Source: a virus. Taken from it: a DNA stretch of 37,666 nucleotides. Shown piece after piece: positions 3,184 to 37,453 of this stretch. The translations under genes and the position numbers were made by a program. Location: the UHGV virus genome UHGV-0324630, one strand, 5' to 3'. Within the stretch, counting starts at the first letter, position 1; every line of letters starts with the position of its first letter. Below the pieces are notes generated by a model. The model was not told where the DNA came from, searched no databases, and saw nothing but the letters and a program-made list of their open reading frames with translations.

Positions 3184-3534
3184 ATGAAAAAAAACGCTAA
3201 TAATCCATACTCCAAATTTCGTAATGGCGTAGAACGCCATGTACACCACGTCGCTACCAGTGCATCACGTAGTAACAGTCGCTATAACCTGAACGAGACG
3301 CACGCAACACCGGATGGCCACGCTGTAAAACAAATCGGCGAACATGCCTGGCTGATTGAGAAAGCTGGAATCGTGGTCCACAAATGCCCACACAATCCGT
3401 TTACCGGAAACCGCATTTTTGCATTGAACTGCGGCGACAATCACTTCGGGCAGGATTTCACATTATACGAAGCACTTCGCACGGTTGATCGTCTGCTTCG
3501 CGGGCAAAGTTTTATTAAACAGGCTGATTTATAA
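3184..3534 (+). CDS. Hypothetical early protein
   Basis: 116-aa ORF in the early operon; no motif recognised. Confidence 0.55.
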   Translation: MKKNANNPYSKFRNGVERHVHHVATSASRSNSRYNLNETHATPDGHAVKQIGEHAWLIEKAGIVVHKCPHNPFTGNRIFALNCGDNHFGQDFTLYEALRTVDRLLRGQSFIKQADL

Positions 3535-3544
3535 CAGGTGCTTT

Positions 3545-3824
3545 ATGACCAAAGAGCATGCACAAGGTGTATTTATCCGTTTTATTGATTTTCGCGGTGA
3601 ACTGTTATTACGCGCATCAGCCATTGACGGAGTTGTTCCATCCGAAAAAAAACGCAGCTACTTACGTTTATCTGAACGGTACGCGCCTGACTGTGGAGCT
3701 TCCGTACCAGACCGTACGAGAAATCATTAGCGAAGCTGAAAAGGCACGTCAGGTTAATGGCGATGAACCCTATATCGAAATTATTTGTATGGATTCAGAA
3801 GCTGAAATTCAGAAAGCAGATTAA
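3545..3824 (+). CDS. Hypothetical early protein split between two frames at an A8 homopolymer (3645..3652); frameshifted gene or homopolymer sequencing error
   Basis: Frame A (ATG 3545, RBS AGGTG) reads MTKEHAQGVFIRFIDFRGELLLRASAIDGVVPSEKK then ends at 3730; the +1 frame continues ...NAATYVYLNGTRLTVELPYQTVREIISEAEKARQVNGDEPYIEIICMDSEAEIQKAD to 3824. Removing one A from the A8 run fuses them into a single ~91-aa ORF that fills the gap between flanking genes. Confidence 0.45.
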
Positions 3825-9379: not shown

Positions 9380-10339
9380 ATGAAAATTTGTATCGACGAC
9401 GGCTCCACCAACATCAAGCTGGCATGGACTGAGAACGGCGAACGCCGCAACGCCATCAGCCCGAACAGCTTCAAGTCGGAATGGTCTGCGCCGTTCGGTG
9501 GCACGCAGCCCGCGAACTACATGCTTGATGGCGTGCGCTATGGTTTTGATCCTGTCAGCGATCGCTTTGTCCAGACGACCGACACGCAATACCAATACAG
9601 CGATGTGAATGTCATTGCCATTCATCACGCGCTGGTCAAATCAGGCATCACGCCACAGGAGGTGGATGTGGTTGTCACCCTGCCACTGAGCGAGTATTTC
9701 GACACAAACGCACAGCCGGACATGGCCAACATCAACCGCAAAAAAGCGAACGTTATGCGCCCGGTGGAGTACCAGAACGGCAAAGCATTCACTATCCGTA
9801 ACGTACGGGTTATGCCTGAATCTATTCCGGCTGGCTTTAAAGCACTGGCTGACATGAGTCCGTTTGAATCCCTGCTGATTGTGGATTTAGGCGGAACCAC
9901 GCTGGATGTGGCAAAGGTTCAGGGACAACTGGCAGGTATCAGCCAGGTGTTTTGCGATCCACACGTAGGCGTTTCCCTGATGGCCGATGCAGTACTGTCG
10001 GTGATGGCCACTAACGGTATGCGTACCAGTCACCACATCGCCAATACCATTATCGAACATCGCCATGATGAAGCTTGGCTGCGCCAGCACATCCACAATG
10101 ACGCGCATTACGCCAGCCTGATGGCGGTTATTCGTGAAAAGGAAGAAACACTGAAACAACGCGTGATCCGCGCGCTGGCGGGTTTTTCGGGTTACGGGCG
10201 GGTGATGGTTGTCGGTGGCGGAGCGGAGATTGTGGCACCCGCTATCCGCGAAGCCTGCGGGGTTAATGCGACTTTCATCGCGGACGGGGTGCCACAGTTT
10301 GCTCTGGTTAATGGGCTGTACGCAATGGACAAGGAGTAA
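9380..10339 (+). CDS. parM: ParM/StbA-family actin-like ATPase (type II partition NTPase)
   Basis: 319-aa ORF; N-terminus MKICIDDGSTNIKLAW...ISPNSFKSEW...YQYSDVNVIAIHHAL and later PESIPAGF, IVDLGGTTLD, FSGY..VMVVGGGAE align closely with my memory of plasmid R1 ParM (MLVFIDDGSTNIKLQW...ISPNSFKREW...). Confidence 0.9.
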   Translation: MKICIDDGSTNIKLAWTENGERRNAISPNSFKSEWSAPFGGTQPANYMLDGVRYGFDPVSDRFVQTTDTQYQYSDVNVIAIHHALVKSGITPQEVDVVVTLPLSEYFDTNAQPDMANINRKKANVMRPVEYQNGKAFTIRNVRVMPESIPAGFKALADMSPFESLLIVDLGGTTLDVAKVQGQLAGISQVFCDPHVGVSLMADAVLSVMATNGMRTSHHIANTIIEHRHDEAWLRQHIHNDAHYASLMAVIREKEETLKQRVIRALAGFSGYGRVMVVGGGAEIVAPAIREACGVNATFIADGVPQFALVNGLYAMDKE

Positions 10340-11828: not shown

Positions 11829-12253
11829 ATTTTTTTGAACGACTTTTTACCCTTCCGCCCCGCATGGCGGCTGGATCCGTCAAGGATCCGTGCGTGCACA
11901 AAAAAAAGCGTTTTTTCTGCGCGCAGGTGACGGGGGAACAGCCCGCGTTTCAGGGGGTAAATAGCATTCCCTGAGCGATGTCGCAGCGACACAACAGAAT
12001 GGCTGTATTTCTCACGCTGAGCGTGAAAAAGACGTGAGGGCTTTTGATTTGATGGGGTAACAGATAAGGCCGCCAAAATCGCACTGAGGCGGCAGGAACA
12101 TGCAGTCAACGCGGTGGGATTGCGTAAGAGTCTGACCGTCGATGATGGCAATAAGCTGGAAGGCGTCGTGAAATTATCTGATTGATACAGGAGCTGGAGA
12201 GTCGGGGCATAAATTTTTTATGCCCCGGCGAAGCAGCAGACAAGCGAAGCGCG

Positions 12254-26124: not shown

Positions 26125-26741
26125 TGGCATTCAGAATGAGTGAACAATCACGTACTGTAAAAATTTATAACCTGCTGGCCGGAACTAATGAGTTTATTGG
26201 TGAAGGTGACGCATATATTCCACCTCATACAGGGCTGCCAGCCAATTCTACAGATATCGCCCCACCGGAAATTCCTGCTGGCTTTGTGGCAGTTTTTAAC
26301 AGTGAAAATGAATCGTGGAATATTGTTGAAGACCATCGTGGTAAAACGGTCTATGACGTGGCATCGGGGGACGCGTTGTTTATTTCTGAACCCGGACCGC
26401 TACCAGAGAATGTCACCTGGTTGTCGCCAGCAGGGGAGTATCAGAAGTGGGACGGCGTATCCTGGGTGAAGGATGAGGAAGCAGAAAAACTGTTTCGGAT
26501 ACGGGAAGCGGAAGAGAAAAAGGCAAGGTTGATCCAGGAAGCAACAGATAACATCGCAATTCTGCAGGATGCAGTTAATCTTGAAATAGCAACAAACGAG
26601 GAAAATTCACAACTGGATTCCTGGAGAAAATACAGAGTATTAGTGAGTAGAATTGACACCAGTACAGCTCCGGATATCGTATGGCCAGAGCTGATGAATC
26701 AGGGTTATGTGCGGGAGGACGAGCAGATAACTTCAGACTGA
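26124..26741 (+). CDS. G: Tail fibre assembly chaperone (Tfa/gpG-like)
   Basis: 205-aa ORF, ATG overlaps the H stop (TAATG); sits directly after the fibre gene. Confidence 0.8.
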
Positions 26742-27268
26742 AATTTAGTGATGAATGTTGAATCATCTGGAATATCATGCAATACCAATGCATGAGCACC
26801 TATTGTGACATTGTTTCCTATACGCACTTTGCCACCAAGAATGGTGGCATTACAACCAATGGTCACATTATGTCCTATAACAATATCCATATCATTAAAA
26901 TCACCACGCAGCCCAATAGTTACCCCTGGTTTTATTGAACAATTTTCACCGATTGTTACTTTGTGACCGATAACAACACTGTTGAGATAAGAAATATCAA
27001 AGCCTTTCCCTATATTTACAGTTAAAGGGACTGTTACATTATATTTATCAAGAATGAAACGTTCTATTTTCCCCGCAATCTTCCGACAGTATCCGCCTTT
27101 ATCAAAAAGGTATTTGGCTATGCGCCACCAAAATAAATAACGAACTCTTCTATGTTTTATTGCGCGAACAATTGCCTTTCGCCAGGAGAAAGGACGCTCG
27201 CTACCGATTACTTCATAGTGAATACAATCTTTAAGTTCATTAATATTCATATCTCTATTATTCAGCAT
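26705..27268 (-). CDS. Hexapeptide-repeat (left-handed beta-helix) acyl/acetyltransferase; AT-rich cargo gene at the position of the P2 Z/fun locus
   Basis: 187-aa ORF; tandem hexapeptide repeats [21 protein letters not shown]...[34 protein letters not shown] typical of LacA/Maa/WbbJ-type transferases; convergent with and overlapping the tfa 3' end. Confidence 0.8.
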
Positions 27269-27438: not shown

Positions 27439-27933
27439 TCAGAACAGCCCTTTAACTGAACTGGCCGCGCTGTTAAGGGATGATGTCACTTTATCTTTGA
27501 AGCCGGACAGCATATCGCTGAACGATGAGGATTGCAGGCGCTCCCGCAAATCCTCATCACAGCGTTCAAGGGTCAGTGAAAATTCTATCTTTTTCGCCTT
27601 ACCGTAGCGATCAAACTCGGAACGGGTCGTATTCGTTTCGGTCAGGACATACATGCCGTAAATCTGCCCGACGCCATCAATAAGAGGCCAGGGGCGTCCT
27701 GTATACGCCTGCGTGGTCAGCAGCGACAGCGACACTTCGCCACCTGTAATTTCAGGATAAAGCACACCAGAAAGAACGATGCGATCATCACCTGCACCGA
27801 TATACTGCCAGCTTGCTGAACGGTTAACGCGTTCATTTTTCACATGCCGCCAGCTTTTGTTTTGCTGTAACTGCTGATGCGGCAGCGTGCGCAGCTCAAA
27901 AACAAACATGCCGTAGATCATCATCATGGCCAT
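27439..27933 (-). CDS. U: Tail protein U, P2 gpU-like
   Basis: MAMMMIYGMFVFELRTLPHQQLQQNKSWRH...VLYPEITGG...WPLIDGVGQIYGMYVLTE resembles P2 gpU from memory. Confidence 0.85.
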   Translation of the reverse strand: MAMMMIYGMFVFELRTLPHQQLQQNKSWRHVKNERVNRSASWQYIGAGDDRIVLSGVLYPEITGGEVSLSLLTTQAYTGRPWPLIDGVGQIYGMYVLTETNTTRSEFDRYGKAKKIEFSLTLERCDEDLRERLQSSSFSDMLSGFKDKVTSSLNSAASSVKGLF

Positions 27934-27939
27934 GACTCC

Positions 27940-30783
27940 TCAATCTTTATCGTAAAAACTGCCACGCCCGGCACGGGCGCGCCGTTCCATTTCTGCCCTG
28001 ACCATTTCACCGACCAGTTTCGCCAGTTCGCGGGGATTCTGCGTAACAACGTTATGCAGATGAACATGAATTTCACCACCAAATCCGGAGGCAACAGGCT
28101 CCCGGTTACGGGAAGTTACAGGAACTGATGCCACTGGAGATCGTATGGCCTCCGCCACCGGGCGGGAGCTGGCCGCAACAACAGGGACCAGCGCCGGAGG
28201 CAGCGGAGCCGGGACCACGGGTGTGATATTAATTGCGGGGGCAGGCTTACTGACCTGCGCAATCTTCCGCTCCTGCCACTCTCCACGAACAGCAAGTGCG
28301 CGGGGCAGGTTCTTAAAGACAATATCGCCGGGGCCAATGCGTTTTTTCGTCTCATCAACCAGCTTACCTGTGTTATCAGCAATTTTGCTGAGTCTGCGTA
28401 GCGTCCCGGTATTGCTGTCTGTGAGCGGTTTGTTGTCTTTGGGTTTATTACCTCCGGTGCCATTGCCATTTTCCACAGGCTTCGGCGGATTGATTTTCGC
28501 CAGGTCACCCTGAAGCAAGGCAACCTTGTCCTGAAGAATGGCCGCACGCTGTGCGTCTTCGATTTTCTTGCGCGCTCTTTCCGCTTCATCCGGAAGGACG
28601 CCAAGTTTTTCAAGTATCCACGCCAGCGTATCCAGTAGCATTTTTGCAGGTGTCAGAACAAGCTGTAACGCACCGCCAAGAACGTTACCGAATATCTCGC
28701 CAGCACTGGTACATTTATCCAGCGTTTCCTTGCTGGACTCCATCGGTGACAGCAGCGATTTAAACCAGTTAAACACCTGGCTGATCCCGCTTCCGATTGT
28801 GTCAAAAACAGGACCAAACCGTTCAAAGGTTTCGCGCAACGGGGTCAGCCTTTCCATAATCCCGCTGAACACCCCGGCAAAAAATGCCCTGATGGGATCC
28901 CAGTATTTCCAGATAAGAACGGCAGCTCCGGCAAGCGCAGCCACGATAAGACCAACCGGACTGAACAGCGCCCCGATAGCGCCTCCCAGTAAAGAAACGG
29001 AACCCGTCACCATTCCCCACAGCGCAGGCAACACCCTGACGACATTCATTGACCGGGTAAGAATGTCAAAACCAAGACGCAGGGTGGCCAGCTTCCCGTA
29101 AAGCACCCCAATAACCAGCGACAACGAGCCAATCGTTGCAGTCATTGCCAGCAACGCACCGCCTGCTATCAGTAGCTGGCGCGTCAGTACCGGATGGGCC
29201 TGCGCCAGCGAGGTGATTTTTTCAAGCACCCGCGTGAGCCACTGCGTGACAGAACGCAGCGGACCGTCAACCAGATCACTGATGCGAATACGAAGACCTT
29301 CCCATGCGCTGTCGAGATTTTTCAGGTCCCCATCAAGATTATCGGCCATTACTTTTGCGACGCGATCGGCCTCTCCCCTTGCCCCCTGCAATTCTCTGGT
29401 CAGTTTTTGCAGCTCTCCTGAACCAGCCGCCGCAACAAGCGTCTGCAAACCAACGAACGCCTCTTCTCCGGCGATGTCCTTGAAGAAGGAAACCTGGTCC
29501 ACCTGTCCGTATTTTTGTGTCGCCTTATAGAGATCAAGCAGCACATCCTCCATCGGGCGCATTTTGCCTCTGGCGTCAGCAACTGACACCCCCAGCTCTT
29601 TCAGTGCATCAGCCGCAGCTTTTGGCGGTGATGCAAGGCGGGACAGACTTGCGCGCATGGCCGTACCAGCATCGCTTCCGCGAAGACCATTATTGGCAAG
29701 CATCCCGGCCATGGCTGCCGCTTCTTCAAGACTGATACCAAGTTTTGCGGCAACCGGACCGGTATACTTCATGGTTTCGCCCAGCGCGCGTAAATCAGTA
29801 TTGGTCCGGGTGAATGCTGCTGTCAGCGTATCGCCAACACGGTCCATTTGATCGGCTGTCAGGTTGAACTGTGTGAGGATATTGGAGCCTATATCAGCCG
29901 TCTCGCCGAGTTCGACGCCACCTGCCAGCGCCATATTAAGAACACCGGGCAATGCGGCCTGAATGGCCTGCGGAGTAAAACCAGCCATTGCCAGAAAGCT
30001 CTGCCCACTGGCGGCATCACTCGCAGTAAACTGTGTTTCAGAGCCAAGTTTTAACGCCTGCTCACGCAGCGCCTTAAACTGCGGGCTGTTTTTGTCGATT
30101 CGCGTCAGTGCCTGAACACGGGACATCTCTTTGCCGAACCCGATCGCAGGCTGCAAAAAACGCCCGGCAGCATAGCCGCCCGCCGTTGCCGCACCAATTG
30201 CCAGCGCACCACCTGTTTTCAGTTTTCCCGCTGTTTCCTGCGCGCGCGAATACCGCTCACGCGCCCGTGTTACACGCGCAAGCGCCTGCCGTTCGCGTTC
30301 AAGCTGGTTGTTGTACTGTTCGGTGCGTCTGATGGCCTGCTGGATGGTGTTATCGCTGCCTGTCAGGGAAATGCCGTGGCGTTTCAGCTCTCCGCCAAGC
30401 TCCCGCATTTTCTGAATTTCCCGTGTGCGCGATTCATTCAGGCGTTCAAGCCGGGTGCTTAACTGCTGCATCAGCTTTTGTTGTTTTTCGCTGAGCACTG
30501 TACCCGTGCGTTGTAACTGATTAAGGGCGTTAAGCTGGCGTCGTGCTTTCAATATGCCAGCATCCGCTTTACTGACAGCGTCACGGGCGCGCTCAAATGA
30601 ACGCGCCTGACGCTCGAGATTTTTGATCGCCCCCTGCGTTCGCTGGATGGAGTCACCAAACTGCCCCATCAGGCGGCGGGCGTTTTCGGCAGGCCGGGTC
30701 AGCCTGTCAACGGCGCTGAAAGCGACCCGGATGTCAAGAGTCTTCATTGTCTGCATTCCCGCTGCGAAGTGCCGCCCGCTCAC
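27940..30783 (-). CDS. T: Tail tape measure protein, P2 gpT-like
   Basis: 947-aa ORF; long coiled-coil N-terminal half, Gly/Ala-rich hydrophobic central segments, position between E/E' and U. Confidence 0.88.
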   Translation of the reverse strand: MSGRHFAAGMQTMKTLDIRVAFSAVDRLTRPAENARRLMGQFGDSIQRTQGAIKNLERQARSFERARDAVSKADAGILKARRQLNALNQLQRTGTVLSEKQQKLMQQLSTRLERLNESRTREIQKMRELGGELKRHGISLTGSDNTIQQAIRRTEQYNNQLERERQALARVTRARERYSRAQETAGKLKTGGALAIGAATAGGYAAGRFLQPAIGFGKEMSRVQALTRIDKNSPQFKALREQALKLGSETQFTASDAASGQSFLAMAGFTPQAIQAALPGVLNMALAGGVELGETADIGSNILTQFNLTADQMDRVGDTLTAAFTRTNTDLRALGETMKYTGPVAAKLGISLEEAAAMAGMLANNGLRGSDAGTAMRASLSRLASPPKAAADALKELGVSVADARGKMRPMEDVLLDLYKATQKYGQVDQVSFFKDIAGEEAFVGLQTLVAAAGSGELQKLTRELQGARGEADRVAKVMADNLDGDLKNLDSAWEGLRIRISDLVDGPLRSVTQWLTRVLEKITSLAQAHPVLTRQLLIAGGALLAMTATIGSLSLVIGVLYGKLATLRLGFDILTRSMNVVRVLPALWGMVTGSVSLLGGAIGALFSPVGLIVAALAGAAVLIWKYWDPIRAFFAGVFSGIMERLTPLRETFERFGPVFDTIGSGISQVFNWFKSLLSPMESSKETLDKCTSAGEIFGNVLGGALQLVLTPAKMLLDTLAWILEKLGVLPDEAERARKKIEDAQRAAILQDKVALLQGDLAKINPPKPVENGNGTGGNKPKDNKPLTDSNTGTLRRLSKIADNTGKLVDETKKRIGPGDIVFKNLPRALAVRGEWQERKIAQVSKPAPAINITPVVPAPLPPALVPVVAASSRPVAEAIRSPVASVPVTSRNREPVASGFGGEIHVHLHNVVTQNPRELAKLVGEMVRAEMERRARAGRGSFYDKD

Positions 30784-31263
30784 GCCAGCTAACCACTTCG
30801 CCGGGCGTCATCATGAAGATTTCGGCGGGCGACCAGTTAAAAATGGCGGCAATATCCGCCACCAGATCTTCGATGTGCTCAAAGCACACCAGGGTGATTA
30901 CGCTGCCGTCTCCTGCACGCTCTTCGCGCCAGAGTCTGGCTCGCTCATAAAATTTACAGCCACAGCGCACAACTGAATAAAATCGCGTGACGACATTTTT
31001 TTAATCATCACTTCATCCAGTCGTGGCGAGGTCACGCGAGGCAACAGCGTGAACATGGTATCCGCTTTCAGATTCAGCACATCAGACAGCGACAGACCAC
31101 GCAGGGATCCAGCCTGCTCAATAGCCCCGGTGATCTCCACATACGTGATTTTTTCGCCACCACGCTCAATTGGTCGGGTCAGTTTTACGCCACGCTCGCT
31201 GGTTTCTTTCACAGTGTCAGCAACGACCGTATTTTCGGTATCGATGTTTTTCGTCACTTTCAT
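30734..31263 (-). CDS. Tail assembly chaperone gpE+E' (predicted -1 programmed frameshift product)
   Basis: The -1 frame is open from inside the A7 run to 30734 and overlaps the tape measure start, the classic G/GT, E/E' arrangement. Confidence 0.6.
30898..31263 (-). CDS. E: Tail assembly chaperone gpE
   Basis: 121-aa ORF downstream of the tube gene; its 3' end holds an A7 slippery run and overlaps a -1-frame ORF (E'). Confidence 0.8.
   Translation of the reverse strand: MKVTKNIDTENTVVADTVKETSERGVKLTRPIERGGEKITYVEITGAIEQAGSLRGLSLSDVLNLKADTMFTLLPRVTSPRLDEVMIKKMSSRDFIQLCAVAVNFMSEPDSGAKSVQETAA
30996..31002 (-). promoter_or_regulatory. Candidate -1 ribosomal frameshift (slippery) site: A7 on the coding strand (AUU AAA AAA AUG)
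   Basis: Seen directly as T7 on the plus strand; the -1 frame carries a TAA just upstream and is open only from within the A-run. Confidence 0.5.
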
Positions 31264-31317
31264 CAGGAAACTCCTTTCAGTCAGAGGCGACGCACTGCGC
31301 CGCCTGCATATTACTTA

Positions 31318-31830
31318 TCAGCCAAGCCCGAGCGCGGAACGGATGCGATCGGGCACAATGTCCTTGCCGTCCTTCCGGTAAATGAAGTTCAGCAGGTCAA
31401 TCTCCCACAACGGGCGATCGTTAACACTCAGCTTGTAGTAGGTGTTTTTAATGGCGTAAGTGTGTGATGTGGCTTCGCCCTGTTTGGCTTCCCCCATATC
31501 AATTTCCGTCACACGTCCGCGCATTTCGACTTCATACAGGTCGCTTTCATCATCGGTGTAGTATTCACCCGCAAAACGCAGTAGCGTGCCGTCAATCGTG
31601 CCGCCATACTTCAGGAACAGCTCACGAACTGCGCCCCCCATGACAAAGCTCGCATCAAGCGCGGAGTCGTCCAGACCGAGATCAATACTTACCGCCCCCA
31701 TCATGCCACCACCCCGGTAGCTGTCGGTTTTGCGCGTCAGTTTAGGCAGGGTGACGGACGTCACCTTACCCACTTCGTTTTCACCATCCACAAACAGCGT
31801 AAAAAAGCGAAGATGTTTTGGTACAGCCAT
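31318..31830 (-). CDS. FII: Tail tube protein, P2 gpFII-like
   Basis: 170-aa ORF immediately downstream of the sheath gene on the minus strand. Confidence 0.88.
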   Translation of the reverse strand: MAVPKHLRFFTLFVDGENEVGKVTSVTLPKLTRKTDSYRGGGMMGAVSIDLGLDDSALDASFVMGGAVRELFLKYGGTIDGTLLRFAGEYYTDDESDLYEVEMRGRVTEIDMGEAKQGEATSHTYAIKNTYYKLSVNDRPLWEIDLLNFIYRKDGKDIVPDRIRSALGLG

Positions 31831-33014
31831 CAGGCACCTCCCAGCACCGCAAATGCGGGACCAAAGAATTCATCAGTAAACGACTGGTAAAGCTCCATGT
31901 CTTCCAGCGGAGGAACGGGCGTATATTTGTAGCGAATACGCACACGCCCCTGACGTAAATTCGTGGTGCTGTTATCCACGATGTCATACCAGCACTCCGC
32001 GCCAATCAGTTTCCCGGCAGTAACCAGTGAATCCAGTTTTGCCCTGATGGCACTGATAACATCCTTCACGTTCGCAGGCGTCAGTGGACTGTCGATGGTT
32101 TCAAACTGCGCTTCCGCAATTGAATCAGCCAGCACCTGTGCAGTTCGGGTATACACCTCAAAGATGTAGGCGTTCGTTTCCGGTGTGCGGTTGCCCCAGA
32201 AGCGGAACCCGTTGCGACGAATAATGGTCGTGATTTCTTTGTTGTTGAGGCTGTTGGCATCGCTGTCTTCGGCCTGCAACGACCAGAACACATGCCTGGA
32301 CATCCCCAGCACATTTTTAACCGGAACATTGGACAGTGATTTGTGCCATCCCTGCTCATGGTCAATGTACGCACGAAGGCCGCACGCATAGGCAGGCGCG
32401 GGGAACGTTTCGTTTTTGCCACTTTTCGGGTTGTAGGCGATGAAGTCCGGCCATAAGAGCATCACCTCACGTTCATTGAATTTCTGGCGGTAGGTAATCG
32501 CCTCAGCCATCGTGTTACAGCCGTGACATGAGGCATACACAAACGCGCGCAGTTTACCCGCAATCACGCACAGGGATTTTGTTACCGCCTCCGTATCCAG
32601 CTCCGGCGCGGCCAGAATACGCGGACGGTATCCGATGCTTTCATCCTGCTCTGCAACAAGCAGCGCATACATCCCCGTATAGCTGCCGTCAGATTCAGAA
32701 CCACCGATAACCAGTTGATCCTGCGTTTTTCCGTCTTCTTCTTTGTGTTCAGCCACGCGAACGACGATCACCTTTGTGCTCACCTGGTCTGCGATGGCCT
32801 TAAGCGCACGATAAAGCGTCCCCGTTGTTCCGCATTTTCCCAGCACGTCATTGACGCGGGTCAGCAGTGTGGGCTTGTTCAGCGGGAACAGCTCCGCGTC
32901 CGCATCATCCGCCATTGCCACGATACCGATAACACTGGAATCAACATCATTAATCGCTGTTACCAGGTCGGTACTTTCCGTAACACGGGCACCATGAAAA
33001 CGAGTTTCACTCAT
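31830..33014 (-). CDS. FI: Contractile tail sheath protein, P2 gpFI-like
   Basis: 394-aa ORF; size and position match P2 FI (about 396 aa). Confidence 0.9.
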   Translation of the reverse strand: MSETRFHGARVTESTDLVTAINDVDSSVIGIVAMADDADAELFPLNKPTLLTRVNDVLGKCGTTGTLYRALKAIADQVSTKVIVVRVAEHKEEDGKTQDQLVIGGSESDGSYTGMYALLVAEQDESIGYRPRILAAPELDTEAVTKSLCVIAGKLRAFVYASCHGCNTMAEAITYRQKFNEREVMLLWPDFIAYNPKSGKNETFPAPAYACGLRAYIDHEQGWHKSLSNVPVKNVLGMSRHVFWSLQAEDSDANSLNNKEITTIIRRNGFRFWGNRTPETNAYIFEVYTRTAQVLADSIAEAQFETIDSPLTPANVKDVISAIRAKLDSLVTAGKLIGAECWYDIVDNSTTNLRQGRVRIRYKYTPVPPLEDMELYQSFTDEFFGPAFAVLGGA

Positions 33015-33171
33015 AGCTTCAGCCCCTTGTATCCGTTAAATGATTCGGCAACAATCATCACCCACCACGCGCGTAATCTCACCCCTGCGCCGTTCTCCCG
33101 ACCCGGCGACAACAAAAAGCAGTAACCCCCTCCGCACGCACATGCGACCATGCCGCACAGGGAGGGAACAG

Positions 33172-34281
33172 ATGACCGATACCACCATGCAATTGCTCAG
33201 TCAGGGCACAGACCCCGTGAAAATGCCGGATTTTGATATTCTCGCGGAGGGTAAAACGCTGTCAGGCGTGGCAGAGCGCCTGATGAGCCTGTCACTGACC
33301 GACAACCGGGGATTTGAGGCGGACCAGCTCACCATCACGCTGGATGATGCGGATGGTCAGTTGCAGCTACCGCCACGGGGCGCGCGCCTGACGGTTCTCA
33401 TTGGCTGGAAAGGAGAACCGCTGACAGAAAAAGGCACTTACATTGTTGATGAAATCGCTCACGAAGGACCGCCGGACAGGCTGACTGTTTCAGCCAGAAG
33501 CGCAGATTTTCGGGATGAATTTAACGTTAAACGTGAAGTGTCCTGGCATGATGTGACCGTTGAGCGCGTGGTATCCGCCATCGCTCATCGGTATGGTCTG
33601 AAACCGCAAATCAGCGAAATGCTGATGGATATCGAAATCGACCACGCCGACCAGACCGAAGAAAGCGACATGTCCTTCCTCACGCGCATGGCGGAAATGC
33701 TGGGCGCAATCACCACGGTAAAAAGCGGTAACCTGTTATTCATCATGCCCGGCGGTGGCGTGAACGCACAGGGCCAGCCGTTGCCCTCGTTCGCCATCAC
33801 ACGCAGCAGCGGCGATCGCCATCAGTTCCGCATTGCTGACCGCGAAGCGTATACGGGGGTACGCGCTTACTGGCTTGATCTTAATTACGGGAAAAAGAAA
33901 AAAGTCAGCGTGAAACGCCGCAAACCGCCAAAACCCAAAAAGGAGAAAAGCAGCAGCCGTGAAGGTGATTATATGGAAGGCGCAGAAGGCAATGTGTTTG
34001 TGTTACGCAAGACTTATCAGAACGAGCAGGCAGCAAGACGCGCAGCGGCGGCAAAGTGGCAGCAGCTACAACGCGGAGCCGCATCATTTTCCATCACGCT
34101 GGCGCGTGGACGTGCAGAACTCTACCCCGAAATGCATGGCACGGTAACAGGATTTAAAAGCGAGATTGATAATCAGGACTGGATTATTGCAAAAGCCGAG
34201 CACACTATTGATGACAGTGGCTTTACCACACAGCTTGAGCTTGAAGCAAAAATCCCGGAATGGATAGCGGAAACAGAATGA
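33172..34281 (+). CDS. D: Tail/late control protein D, P2 gpD-like
   Basis: Start taken at ATG 33172 (GGAGGG RBS); about 369 aa. The track's upstream extension from 33040 overlaps the sheath-gene upstream region and is rejected. Confidence 0.88.
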   Translation: MTDTTMQLLSQGTDPVKMPDFDILAEGKTLSGVAERLMSLSLTDNRGFEADQLTITLDDADGQLQLPPRGARLTVLIGWKGEPLTEKGTYIVDEIAHEGPPDRLTVSARSADFRDEFNVKREVSWHDVTVERVVSAIAHRYGLKPQISEMLMDIEIDHADQTEESDMSFLTRMAEMLGAITTVKSGNLLFIMPGGGVNAQGQPLPSFAITRSSGDRHQFRIADREAYTGVRAYWLDLNYGKKKKVSVKRRKPPKPKKEKSSSREGDYMEGAEGNVFVLRKTYQNEQAARRAAAAKWQQLQRGAASFSITLARGRAELYPEMHGTVTGFKSEIDNQDWIIAKAEHTIDDSGFTTQLELEAKIPEWIAETE

Positions 34282-34680: not shown

Positions 34681-35820
34681 GTGGGAAACAATAAAGTGAA
34701 ATTAGGAAGAAATGATAAGTGCTGGTGTAATTCAGGACTTAAGTATAAAAAGTGCCATCTTGGTCGAGACCGTGAAACTCCGGTATCCAAAGCCGAGGCA
34801 CTGAAATTTTCAAAGTCTCTCTCGCAGAGAAAGGCATGTTATGCGCCAGCATCCATGCACGAAGATTGTGATAAACGCATCGTTCAGGCGCATACGATAT
34901 CTAAGAGCAGTAGCCTTAAGGCGATCGCCGACTCCAGCAATCACGTCATGGGGGTGATAATGAACTTAGCAAGCCTGATGAGAAACAACGGAAAATGGCT
35001 TCCCGAGAAGATCGGTATCAATCAGGCATCCACTTTTACAGGATTTTGTGCAGTTCATGACAGAATCTTGTTTTCATGCCTAGAGAACGAAAAATTTACA
35101 GGCACGGACGAGCAGTGCTTTGCCTTAATGTTTCGTTCATTGTCTAAAGAAATTTACGCCAAAGAAGGGGGAGTGCTATCTTCCGATTTTGCTAAAAATG
35201 CCGATAAAGGAAAGCTACAAGTTGAACAGTATTATATTCAGAAATTAATCGACCAGCACCAAAGTGGCTTAAATGCAGCAATAATTGAATTAAATAATCT
35301 TAAAACTAGCCTCGACCGCATCCTACTTAGCAGGCAATTTTCAGAAATTGAAAGTGTTATCTTCACTTTTGCAGAGCCTTTACCAATTGTAGTTTCGTCA
35401 ATTCTTTCACCGGAGAGGGATTTCGATGGGACCAAAATTCAGGATTTGAGCGATCTTACAGTGTCGGCGGAACAAGTATGTTTCAATGCTTTTTCCTGCG
35501 GAGGTAAGGGATATGTAGTGTTCAGTTGGCTGAGAACTTCAACAATTATCAGACGTTTTATACGGACACTAATTAAGATCCCGGCTAACAGGATGTTCAA
35601 TACCCTTCTGTATTTTTTCTTCACAAAGGCCGAAAATACATATTCATCCCCTGAGTGGTGGGACAGGCTCAGTGATAAACAGCGAGAGAATATCGGCAAC
35701 ATGATTATGTCAGGGGTTGAATTTTTTGGCAGACCTACATCACAGGTTGATCATTCCGTTGATTATAACGCCGCTGCACTTGAAGAGATAACATGCAGCA
35801 ACAACGAAATTTGCAGCTGA
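34681..35820 (+). CDS. Uncharacterised protein with N-terminal SEC-C-like zinc-binding motif (C-W-C-x8-C-H); AT-rich cargo gene inserted between gpD and ogr
   Basis: 379-aa ORF (GTG start, start uncertain; alternative GTG at 34696); N-terminal KCWCNSGLKYKKCH; rest unrecognised; strongly AT-rich with about 400 bp and about 290 bp non-coding flanks. Confidence 0.65.
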   Translation: MGNNKVKLGRNDKCWCNSGLKYKKCHLGRDRETPVSKAEALKFSKSLSQRKACYAPASMHEDCDKRIVQAHTISKSSSLKAIADSSNHVMGVIMNLASLMRNNGKWLPEKIGINQASTFTGFCAVHDRILFSCLENEKFTGTDEQCFALMFRSLSKEIYAKEGGVLSSDFAKNADKGKLQVEQYYIQKLIDQHQSGLNAAIIELNNLKTSLDRILLSRQFSEIESVIFTFAEPLPIVVSSILSPERDFDGTKIQDLSDLTVSAEQVCFNAFSCGGKGYVVFSWLRTSTIIRRFIRTLIKIPANRMFNTLLYFFFTKAENTYSSPEWWDRLSDKQRENIGNMIMSGVEFFGRPTSQVDHSVDYNAAALEEITCSNNEICS

Positions 35821-37172: not shown

Positions 37173-37453
37173 ACCGATACACTCTATTACTAACCAATCA
37201 TAGCCCACATCATAAAATCGAGATGAGGAGCACAATACCTTTAACAAGAAGGTGTCATAACGATAATATGTCGTGCAATTCATCAAAAAAAAGATCTATA
37301 TCAAAGAGATAGAACTCTTATCAGTGCTTCAGACATCGGCATTCGAGGCAGCAGAAAAACAGTAAATCTGACGAATTTGCCTTTTCCCAAGATGTTGTCA
37401 GATTAAAAAGATAGATTAGCGCAGGTACCTGTTGGTGGATTGCAGGAGGAAAA

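Follow-up and report, generated by a model that had tools for sequence, protein, structure and literature searches.

A candidate P2-type E/E' frameshift with a variant slippery heptamer in a Xuanwuvirus prophage of Escherichia coli

A programmed -1 frameshift yielding gpE and gpE+E' from the FETUD tail operon of phage P2 was reportedly described by Christie et al. in 2002 (J Bacteriol 184:6522). The frameshift efficiency for P2 E+E' is about 10%. The shift takes place at TTTTTTG and extends an E of 91 amino acids to an E+E' of 142 amino acids (PMC3091744); the P2 record NC_001895 annotates the -1 site at GGT TTT TTG. The efficiency of P2-type frameshifting is reported to be 2- to 3-fold above that of lambda. 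In lambda and long-tailed phages, a low-level -1 product is required for tail assembly (Levin 1993; Xu, Hendrix, Duda 2004; summarized in PMC5009743). Nothing relevant was found in the literature on frameshifting in Xuanwuvirus. An E+E' fusion is described in none of the public Xuanwuvirus records examined, in which E' appears as a separate 51-aa gene or is omitted.

The window, i.e., the whole stretch of 37,666 nucleotides analyzed here (UHGV-0324630), comes from a Xuanwuvirus (P88-like, Peduoviridae) prophage of E. coli. It is 91-95% identical to Xuanwuvirus phages and has matches in 1377 E. coli genome records. The tail genes are ordered FI-FII-E-(E')-T-U, with Pfam matches for the sheath, tube, GpE, tape measure and GpU. 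The following features are discussed:

31318..31830, minus strand: gene FII, tail tube protein, directly upstream of E (Pfam Phage_tube, 1.3e-47)
31276..31271, minus strand: Shine-Dalgarno sequence AAGGAG, upstream of the E start
30898..31263, minus strand: gene E, tail assembly chaperone, open reading frame of 121 aa (frame 0)
30996..31002, minus strand: A7 run AAA AAA A in codons K88, K89 and M90 (T7 on the plus strand)
30949..30955, minus strand: candidate slippery heptamer A_AAT_TTT in codons V103, N104 and F105, GT[A AAT TTT] ATG
30734..30949, minus strand: putative E' coding part, -1 frame after the slip, YERARLWREERAGDGSVITLVCFEHIEDLVADIAAIFNWSPAEIFMMTPGEVVSWRERAALRSGNADNEDS, with stop codon TGA at 30736..30734
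30887..30889, minus strand: GTG annotated (PGAP, GenBank) as start of a 51-aa 'GpE family' CDS
30755..30862, minus strand: Phage_P2_GpE domain (PF06528) inside E' (Pfam E = 2.1e-12)
27940..30747, minus strand: gene T, tape measure protein (Pfam PhageMin_Tail, 1.6e-56)

The initial annotation had proposed a -1 frameshift from E into E' at the A7 run. The layout on which it built is borne out: E, its Shine-Dalgarno sequence and the A7 run are all in place, and the -1 frame indeed opens at the run, as a TAA (31003..31001) overlaps the 5' edge and the frame then stays open to the TGA. Its end overlaps the start of T by 14 nt, taking the ATG at 30747 that PGAP annotates in an identical E. coli copy. 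E/E' thus lies between FII (31830..31318) and T (from 30747), the placement of P2-type systems. The extension of chaperone E into E' also finds good support in P2 homology and conservation, but the A7 run is probably not its site, given its phase and the orthologues in which the frame is closed or the run is missing.

The upstream open reading frame is homologous to P2 gpE according to PHROG 103 ('tail protein', 1.7e-33), BLASTP and an alignment with 14 invariant columns, D94 and F105 among them, while the Pfam profile Phage_TAC_7 scores 20.6 bits on E, under the 25-bit cut-off. The -1 open reading frame is itself above chance: residues 37-72 of the frame starting at 30970 match PF06528 with 46.7 bits against a cut-off of 23 bits. 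Since the -1 frame encodes this Phage_P2_GpE domain, the locus has the same E/E' arrangement as phage P2. A fusion joined at the NF junction (N104-F105) aligns end to end with P2 E+E' (BLASTP, 1e-28).

Conservation was compared in both frames with P88 and with the P0054 lineage of E. coli, which is 65% identical. Between the A7 run and F105, identity in frame 0 is 14/16 (P88) and 13/16 (P0054 lineage), compared to 6/16 and 8/16, respectively, in frame -1. From F105 to the E stop, identity in frame 0 is 8/16 and 7/16, and in frame -1 it is 12/16 and 10/16. In these alignments, frame -1 takes over from frame 0 as the conserved frame precisely at the F105 heptamer, which is the P2-type pattern. 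The frame -1 motif ER..LWREER.GDGS.IT starts 16 codons before the E stop and reaches distant genera. The genome scan used seven aligned seq­uences, as a set of 10 was too divergent. Within the lineage, 4 and 2 sites vary per 16 codons versus 25/67 upstream, counts that lean in the expected direction but are too sparse to speak for dual-coding constraint; in the stretch from A7 to F105, all four substitutions leave the frame 0 protein unchanged, whereas in frame -1 each is non-synonymous or nonsense.

The slip would be expected near F105, and we consider it likely that it occurs at A_AAT_TTT (30955..30949), 47 bases downstream of the A7 run. This is the sole canonical X_XXZ_ZZN heptamer within E, and no slip motifs are found between F105 and the E stop. 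Given V-N-F, the probability of GTA AAT TTT is 0.037. The position is homologous to the annotated P2 site T_TTT_TTG, with F105 as the shared Phe codon. In E. coli reporters, A_AAU_UUU yields 0.07, 0.36 and 11.4% frameshifting without, with moderate and with strong stimulators, respectively (PMC4066793, Table S3). With a stimulator it equals or surpasses U_UUU_UUG (0.36 vs. 0.25%, and 11.4 vs. 0.77%); without one it stays below (0.07 vs. 0.12%), 0.07% being background (PMC4066793). Folding of the RNA downstream of A_AAT_TTT gives no significant structure (z = -1.74), and neither does folding downstream of the P88 and P2 sites; no Shine-Dalgarno-like element is seen by eye upstream of the heptamer. 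A T_TTT tetramer at F95 (30982..30979) was considered as well and rejected as unconserved: P88 has GAC TTT, and stops follow in the P0054 lineage. The phages Shae_phiSM and P88_4B11, both deposited, share the allele of the window, as do 513 records of complete E. coli genomes.

In the AF2 model, E folds into a domain at residues 25-107, in which 92-107 form a confidently predicted helix, and is disordered from residue 110 on; a Foldseek search of this model against the PDB gave no match (best E = 1.6). PHROG 103 covers residues 8-112 of the fusion joined at NF and only residues 8-89 of that joined at A7, at a loss of 25 bits. Based on this coverage and the modeled helix and disorder, F105 marks the domain boundary. 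Neither fusion was matched by NCBIfam. PHROG 1756 slightly favors the A7 fusion; this preference was set aside as an annotation artefact, since the profile is built from open reading frame calls starting at the GTG at 30970. The predicted E+E' is a protein of 176 aa and 19.7 kDa, ...AVAVNF-YERARLW...NADNEDS. Its predicted tryptic peptide over the A_AAT_TTT junction is DFIQLCAVAVNFYER, compared to DFIQLCAVAVNFMSEPDSGAK as the predicted peptide specific to unshifted E, NVVTR, FYSVVR and CGCK for an A7 junction, and (M)VCFEHIEDLVADIAAIFNWSPAEIFMMTPGEVVSWR as the predicted N-terminus of an independently initiated E'.

Relatives carry a range of heptamers around the invariant Phe codon: T_TTT_TTG, A_AAT_TTT, C_CCT_TTC and C_CCT_TTT_TTG. 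T_TTT_TTG or TTTTTTA occurs at the F105-equivalent codon in P88, Serratia KSP20, Enterobacter phiT5282H, the P0054 lineage (where the -1 frame opens directly 5' of T6G) and prophages of 12 other enterobacterial genera. In a similar way, a Klebsiella relative with TTC TTG uses its upstream heptamer, C_CCT_TTC. P88 carries both heptamers, overlapping, as A_AAT_TTT_TTG. The exact P2 motif is absent from the window, which reads AAT TTT ATG. In an IMG/VR sample of 117 Xuanwuvirus loci, 56 retain T_TTT_TTG (T6G-type) and 61 are ATG-type. Downstream of A7, the -1 frame is interrupted by a TGA in 59 of the 117 loci, comprising 56/56 of the T6G-type and 3/61 of the ATG-type; the same TGA is found in the phages P88, PhiR44_2, 500465-2 and Chuche and in 11 E. 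coli genomes. The three closed ATG-type loci and the 11 E. coli genomes may be clonal or defective prophages.

A shift at the A7 run itself (31002..30996), either by tRNA-Lys slippage or by a polymerase adding an A, would produce ...MIKK-NVVTRFYSVVRCGCKFYERARLW...NADNEDS. We regard this as improbable, and the product that the initial annotation expected, IKK followed by NVVTRFYSVVRCGCKFYERARLW, is probably wrong, as the -1 frame between A7 and F105 is not conserved. It does have points in its favor. The run is invariant in every Xuanwuvirus-like locus seen, tRNA-Lys is notorious for slipping, and E. coli genes avoid runs of A7 or T7 (PMC4066793). The database proteins P0045, P0056 and P0058 are fused right there, showing that an A8 variant reads through into E'. 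Moreover, nothing closes the -1 frame after the run here or in 58/61 ATG-type loci, those that lost T_TTT_TTG, so that a contribution of A7 is compatible with the sequence. Yet the run has a length of 7 and the phase AAA_AAA_A, preceded by T, and is no canonical X_XXZ_ZZN heptamer. In this phase the P-site tRNA would have to re-pair from AAA to UAA, and only the A_AAA tetramer applies, which remains near background in reporters (0.125% without and 0.256% with a pseudoknot; PMC4066793). The run is missing from the E genes of the P0054 lineage, of Klebsiella, Enterobacter and Serratia phages and of P2, and the A7 product would lose the conserved E helix that is confidently predicted at residues 92-107. 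Transcriptional slippage takes place on runs of A9 or longer, and A7 is too short for efficiency. The downstream stimulatory structure that the initial annotation advised looking for does not emerge either: the 80 nt after the run fold worse than shuffled controls (z = +1.37), and no Shine-Dalgarno-like sequence is seen by eye upstream. In sum, the run has neither the heptamer phase nor a length of at least 9 nt, neither a downstream -1 frame that is both open and conserved nor a stimulatory element. Orthologues lacking the overlapping -1 frame, which the initial annotation named as evidence against its proposal, do occur for the stretch from A7 to F105, but not downstream of F105. The run and its tie to the open frame are not above chance. 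Given K-K-M, AAA AAA is expected in 55% under the phage's own codon usage; when the 16 codons from A7 to F105 are resampled synonymously, their -1 frame remains open in 43% of cases; there are 14 A/T runs of at least 7 in the window, with about 3 expected; and the TAA at the run edge arises from the codon pair ATT AAA, the P88 lineage having CAA instead. We judge the A7 run to be a bystander, or a minor secondary site at best.

Use of both sites, with A_AAU_UUU as the main and A7 as the minor one, would lead to two equally long isoforms of E+E' with 16 residues that are not shared. The window leaves both routes open and each motif slips above zero in reporters, but selection on the alternative 16-residue segment is not visible, and we rate this as quite unlikely. 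We see an equally slim chance that no frameshift occurs and that E' is a separate 51-aa protein starting at GTG 30889, perhaps through termination-reinitiation coupling. Every related record examined annotates it that way ('GpE family phage tail protein'), and the GTG lies 9 nt past the E stop and is present in P88 too. However, neither this GTG nor that at 30970 is preceded by a usable Shine-Dalgarno sequence, the nearest AGGAG ending ~20 nt upstream of GTG 30889. Conservation in frame -1 begins ~20 codons upstream of that GTG, and for P2, both the annotation and the literature give the homologous E' as a -1 extension of E. In addition, a 1-nt insertion directly after the heptamer joins E' to E in a Symbiopectobacterium copy. 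The GTG at 30887..30889 is probably not a real start.

Whereas the gene order, the homology, the motif, the frame-specific conservation and the state of the relatives are observed here, slippage at A_AAU_UUU, its efficiency and the chaperone mechanism are inferred. Most ribosomes would translate E up to its TAA stop. A minority would slip back one base on A_AAU_UUU, with the P site occupied by tRNA-Asn (codon AAU) and the A site by tRNA-Phe (codon UUU), and continue in the -1 frame until they reach the TGA at 30736..30734. The resulting E+E' would combine the complete folded E domain with the GpE domain. If it works like lambda gpG/gpGT and P2 gpE/gpE+E', the E portion shared by both products would bind the tape measure T, while tube subunits would be recruited by the E' portion, allowing the tail to polymerize to the right length. 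The ancestral T_TTT_TTG would have been lost here through a TTG to ATG change, leaving the overlapping upstream A_AAT_TTT to do the work. Extended to the roughly half of Xuanwuvirus prophages that have lost T_TTT_TTG, among them this one and those in 513 or more complete E. coli genome records, the proposal that the frameshift moved to A_AAU_UUU, possibly together with A7, whose -1 frame is open almost exclusively in this lineage, is a speculative one to which we give a low probability. If true, it would represent natural turnover of the slip site in an essential recoding signal, perhaps with two E+E' isoforms. The main value of the analysis lies in annotation, as it allows the right product and its slip site to be proposed. 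The heptamer variation may also be used to probe what drives the reported ~10% efficiency in P2-like phages, a question worth asking since these motifs slip weakly in stimulator-free reporters and a stimulator is not known.

The mechanism is an already known one, of the P2 type, with a variant heptamer. The locus resembles P2 in its position between tube and tape measure genes, its homologous E and E', the -1 direction, the predicted slip at the invariant Phe codon closing the folded E domain, an E' that ends a few bases inside T, and the lack of an obvious downstream RNA structure. It differs in that the P2 heptamer T_TTT_TTG is destroyed (TTT ATG) and A_AAT_TTT is found one codon upstream instead. 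E runs 16 codons past the site compared to 6 in P2 and has an N-terminal extension of 20-30 residues relative to P2, and gpD is divergent and located upstream of FI, whereas in P2 it follows U. With A-run recoding sites (dnaX, A_AAA_AAG; IS elements, A_AAA_AAA/G), the locus shares an A7 in coding sequence with an open -1 frame downstream; unlike in those sites, the heptamer phase is wrong, no stimulator was found and the downstream -1 frame is unconserved. With lambda gpG/gpGT, it shares two overlapping open reading frames with a common N-terminus between the major tail and tape measure genes (PMC5009743), although there is no sequence similarity and the lambda motif is G_GGA_AAG.

The tail assembly chaperone gene E lies among minus-strand tail genes with their expected Pfam families, and the -1 open reading frame (ORF) that overlaps it ends inside the tape measure gene.

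Tail genes around E
33014..31830, minus strand: sheath FI, expected Pfam family
31830..31318, minus strand: tube FII, expected Pfam family
31263..30898, minus strand: E, 121 aa, expected Pfam family (Phage_TAC_7, 20.6 bits, under the 25-bit cut-off)
end at 30734, minus strand: -1 ORF overlapping E, Pfam Phage_P2_GpE (2.1e-12)
from 30747, minus strand: tape measure T, expected Pfam family
27933..27439, minus strand: U, expected Pfam family

The 1.3 kb around E and its -1 frame extension E' are 91-95% identical to the Xuanwuvirus (Peduoviridae) phages P88, P88_4B11, Shae_phiSM, 503458 and 520873, and are matched in 1377 E. coli genome records (at 100% in three). The RefSeq records of 503458 and 520873 carry an IS100 transposase in or next to a truncated sheath gene, and therefore probably represent defective prophages rather than viable phages. 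In P2, the gpD gene follows U in the FETUD operon, whereas in the window the gpD-like baseplate hub gene (33040..34281, plus strand; Pfam Phage_GPD, 7e-17) is found upstream of FI in divergent orientation, a layout common to P88 and to Klebsiella, Enterobacter and Serratia relatives. Downstream of gpD, a 379-aa ORF (34681..35820, plus strand) has a SEC-C zinc-binding motif at its N-terminus. A hexapeptide-repeat acyltransferase gene (26705..27268, minus strand) immediately follows gpU, ahead of the tail fibre assembly gene, and probably represents cargo (a moron). A ParM/StbA-type plasmid segregation ATPase (9380..10339, plus strand; Pfam 3.8e-82) adjoins the homologue of replication gene A, an unusual arrangement for an integrated P2-like prophage.

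The initial annotation placed a -1 frameshift in E at an A7 run, and its sequence statements are all correct: E has the length listed, the T7 on the plus strand (30996..31002) corresponds to AAA AAA A in codons K88-K89-M90, and the -1 frame opens at the run, with a TAA overlapping its 5' edge, and continues 14 nt into T, to a TGA at 30736..30734. The -1 ORF is genuinely coding and has the Pfam match listed above. The P2 record annotates the homologous pair E and E+E' with a 'site of -1 translational frameshift' at GGT TTT TTG, and the E+E' of the window aligns with that of P2 over its full length (BLASTP, 1e-28); homology therefore gives the E/E' reading good support. The proposed mechanism was right in kind, but its site and junction are probably wrong, by 47 nt and 16 residues.

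The one canonical X_XXZ_ZZN heptamer in E is A_AAT_TTT (30955..30949; codons V103-N104-F105). It lies 47 nt 3' of the A7 run, and five lines of evidence make it, rather than that run, the probable slip site. F105 is invariant in the alignment, P2 gpE included, and pairs with the Phe of P2's T_TTT_TTG. That motif occupies the F105-equivalent codon in P88, Serratia KSP20, Enterobacter phiT5282H and the 65%-identical P0054 lineage of E. coli, in which a -1 frame TAA immediately precedes it and CTT AAG CGC ATG stands in place of the A-run. When one genome per species was scanned, TTTTTTG or TTTTTTA turned up at the same site in prophages of Salmonella, Izhakiella, Mixta, Pantoea, Kosakonia, Erwinia, Symbiopectobacterium, Serratia, Enterobacter, Yokenella, Raoultella and Brenneria. 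In a Klebsiella phage this position reads TTC TTG, and the upstream heptamer C_CCT_TTC is used instead. A Symbiopectobacterium MAG, a degrading symbiont genome, has E hard-fused to E' by a 1-nt insertion 8 nt past T_TTT_TTG, either a genuine hard-wired fusion or an artefact of assembly. Slippage at A_AAT_TTT would yield a 176-aa E+E' product of 19.7 kDa with the junction ...AVAVNF-YERARLW.

P88 carries an overlapping double motif, A_AAT_TTT_TTG. Compared with P88, the window lineage has TTG changed to ATG (L106M in E, F to Y in E'), so that the P2 motif is lost and A_AAT_TTT is left. This allele is common, and two deposited phages, Shae_phiSM and P88_4B11, both taken to be viable, also carry it. 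Of 117 IMG/VR loci sampled without bias, 56 have T_TTT_TTG, all 56 with the -1 frame closed by a TGA after the A7 run, and 61 have the ATG allele, only three of them closed, via a synonymous CGC to CGT change. In P88, PhiR44_2, 500465-2 and Chuche, CGT GAC likewise creates a -1 frame TGA six codons past the run. Among complete E. coli genomes, the exact 81-mer of the window occurs in 513 records and the closed CGT version in 11, including O26:H11 strain 11368.

Between the A7 run and F105, frame 0 is identical to P88 at 14 of 16 codons and to the P0054 lineage at 13, versus 6 and 8 for frame -1; from F105 to the E stop, the values are 8 and 7 for frame 0 and 12 and 10 for frame -1. By this codon comparison, the frame under selection switches at F105. 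The E-family profile PHROG 103 covers residues 8-112 (115.8 bits) of a fusion joined at F105, and only residues 8-89 (90.6 bits) of one joined at the A7 run. In the AF2 model of E (mean pLDDT 71.6), a helix spans residues 92-107 (block means 90 and 75) and disorder begins at residue 110; a shift at the A7 run would swap out a conserved structural helix, and one at F105 only a floppy tail.

The A7 run is statistically unremarkable: AAA AAA is expected for K-K in 55% of cases with the phage's codon usage, and 43% of synonymous resamplings keep the -1 frame open across the 16 codons to F105. A or T runs of at least 7 nt number 14 in the window, all of 7-8 nt (e.g., 3187..3194, 3645..3652, 11900..11907, 37285..37292), versus about three expected by base composition. 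The chance of GTA AAT TTT given V-N-F is 3.7%. In E. coli reporters, -1 frameshifting without stimulator, with IS911 stimulators and with the IS3 pseudoknot is 0.070% (background), 0.355% and 11.4% for A_AAU_UUU, 0.118%, 0.247% and 0.765% for the P2 motif U_UUU_UUG, and 0.193%, 1.39% and 23.2% for C_CCU_UUC (PMC4066793). As the A7 run has the phase AAA_AAA_A with a U before it, the one applicable motif is the tetramer A_AAA, at 0.125% with no pseudoknot and 0.256% with one (PMC4066793). No stimulatory element was found for either site: folding of the 80 nt that follow gives z = -1.74 for A_AAT_TTT (matched by 11 of 200 shuffles) and z = +1.37 for the A7 run, and the equivalent regions of P88 and P2 are likewise unremarkable. 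A hairpin of about 8 bp (GUGUGCU-UUG-AGCACAU; 30871..30891, minus strand) starts 7 nt past the E stop codon; it is retained in P88 and weaker in the P0054 lineage. Its distance from the heptamer, 58 nt, is too great for a classical stimulator.

A shift at the A7 run itself is unlikely. The -1 frame is open in the window's own lineage, where the run may still make a minor contribution, but the TGA in relatives, the altered run in the P0054 lineage, the poor -1 frame identity up to F105 and the non-heptamer phase with its low tetramer values speak against it. Use of both sites is less probable still. Just as improbable is that a 51-aa E' is initiated on its own at GTG 30889, the start given by all public annotations examined, as no Shine-Dalgarno sequence lies at a usable distance and -1 frame conservation starts 16 codons upstream of the E stop. 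Among database proteins from relatives (P0042, P0045, P0056 and P0058), P0045, P0056 and P0058, the last of which represents 15 sequences, are joined to E' exactly at the A-run by an A8 reading, and one is truncated in the +1 frame by an A6 reading; they reflect either read errors in the homopolymer or genuine indels at the run. A contig titled Vagococcus sp. WN89Y, a Gram-positive record, holds an E. coli-type Xuanwuvirus tail region (E identity 85%), probably through contamination; its E, which has an open -1 frame and T_TTT_TTG, reads ATA AAA AAA ATG, so that an A8 stands in the canonical phase A_AAA_AAA.

In P2, one start yields E (91 aa) and, by a shift at TTTTTTG, E+E' (142 aa); no downstream structure is known there, and the site is kept in Burkholderia P2-like phages (PMC3091744). 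The P2 case belongs to the conserved tail-chaperone frameshift of long-tailed phages, with an efficiency 2- to 3-fold higher than that of lambda (PMC5009743). The locus is an ordinary member of this known P2-type system, and only the variant heptamer and the missing annotation of the fusion are new.
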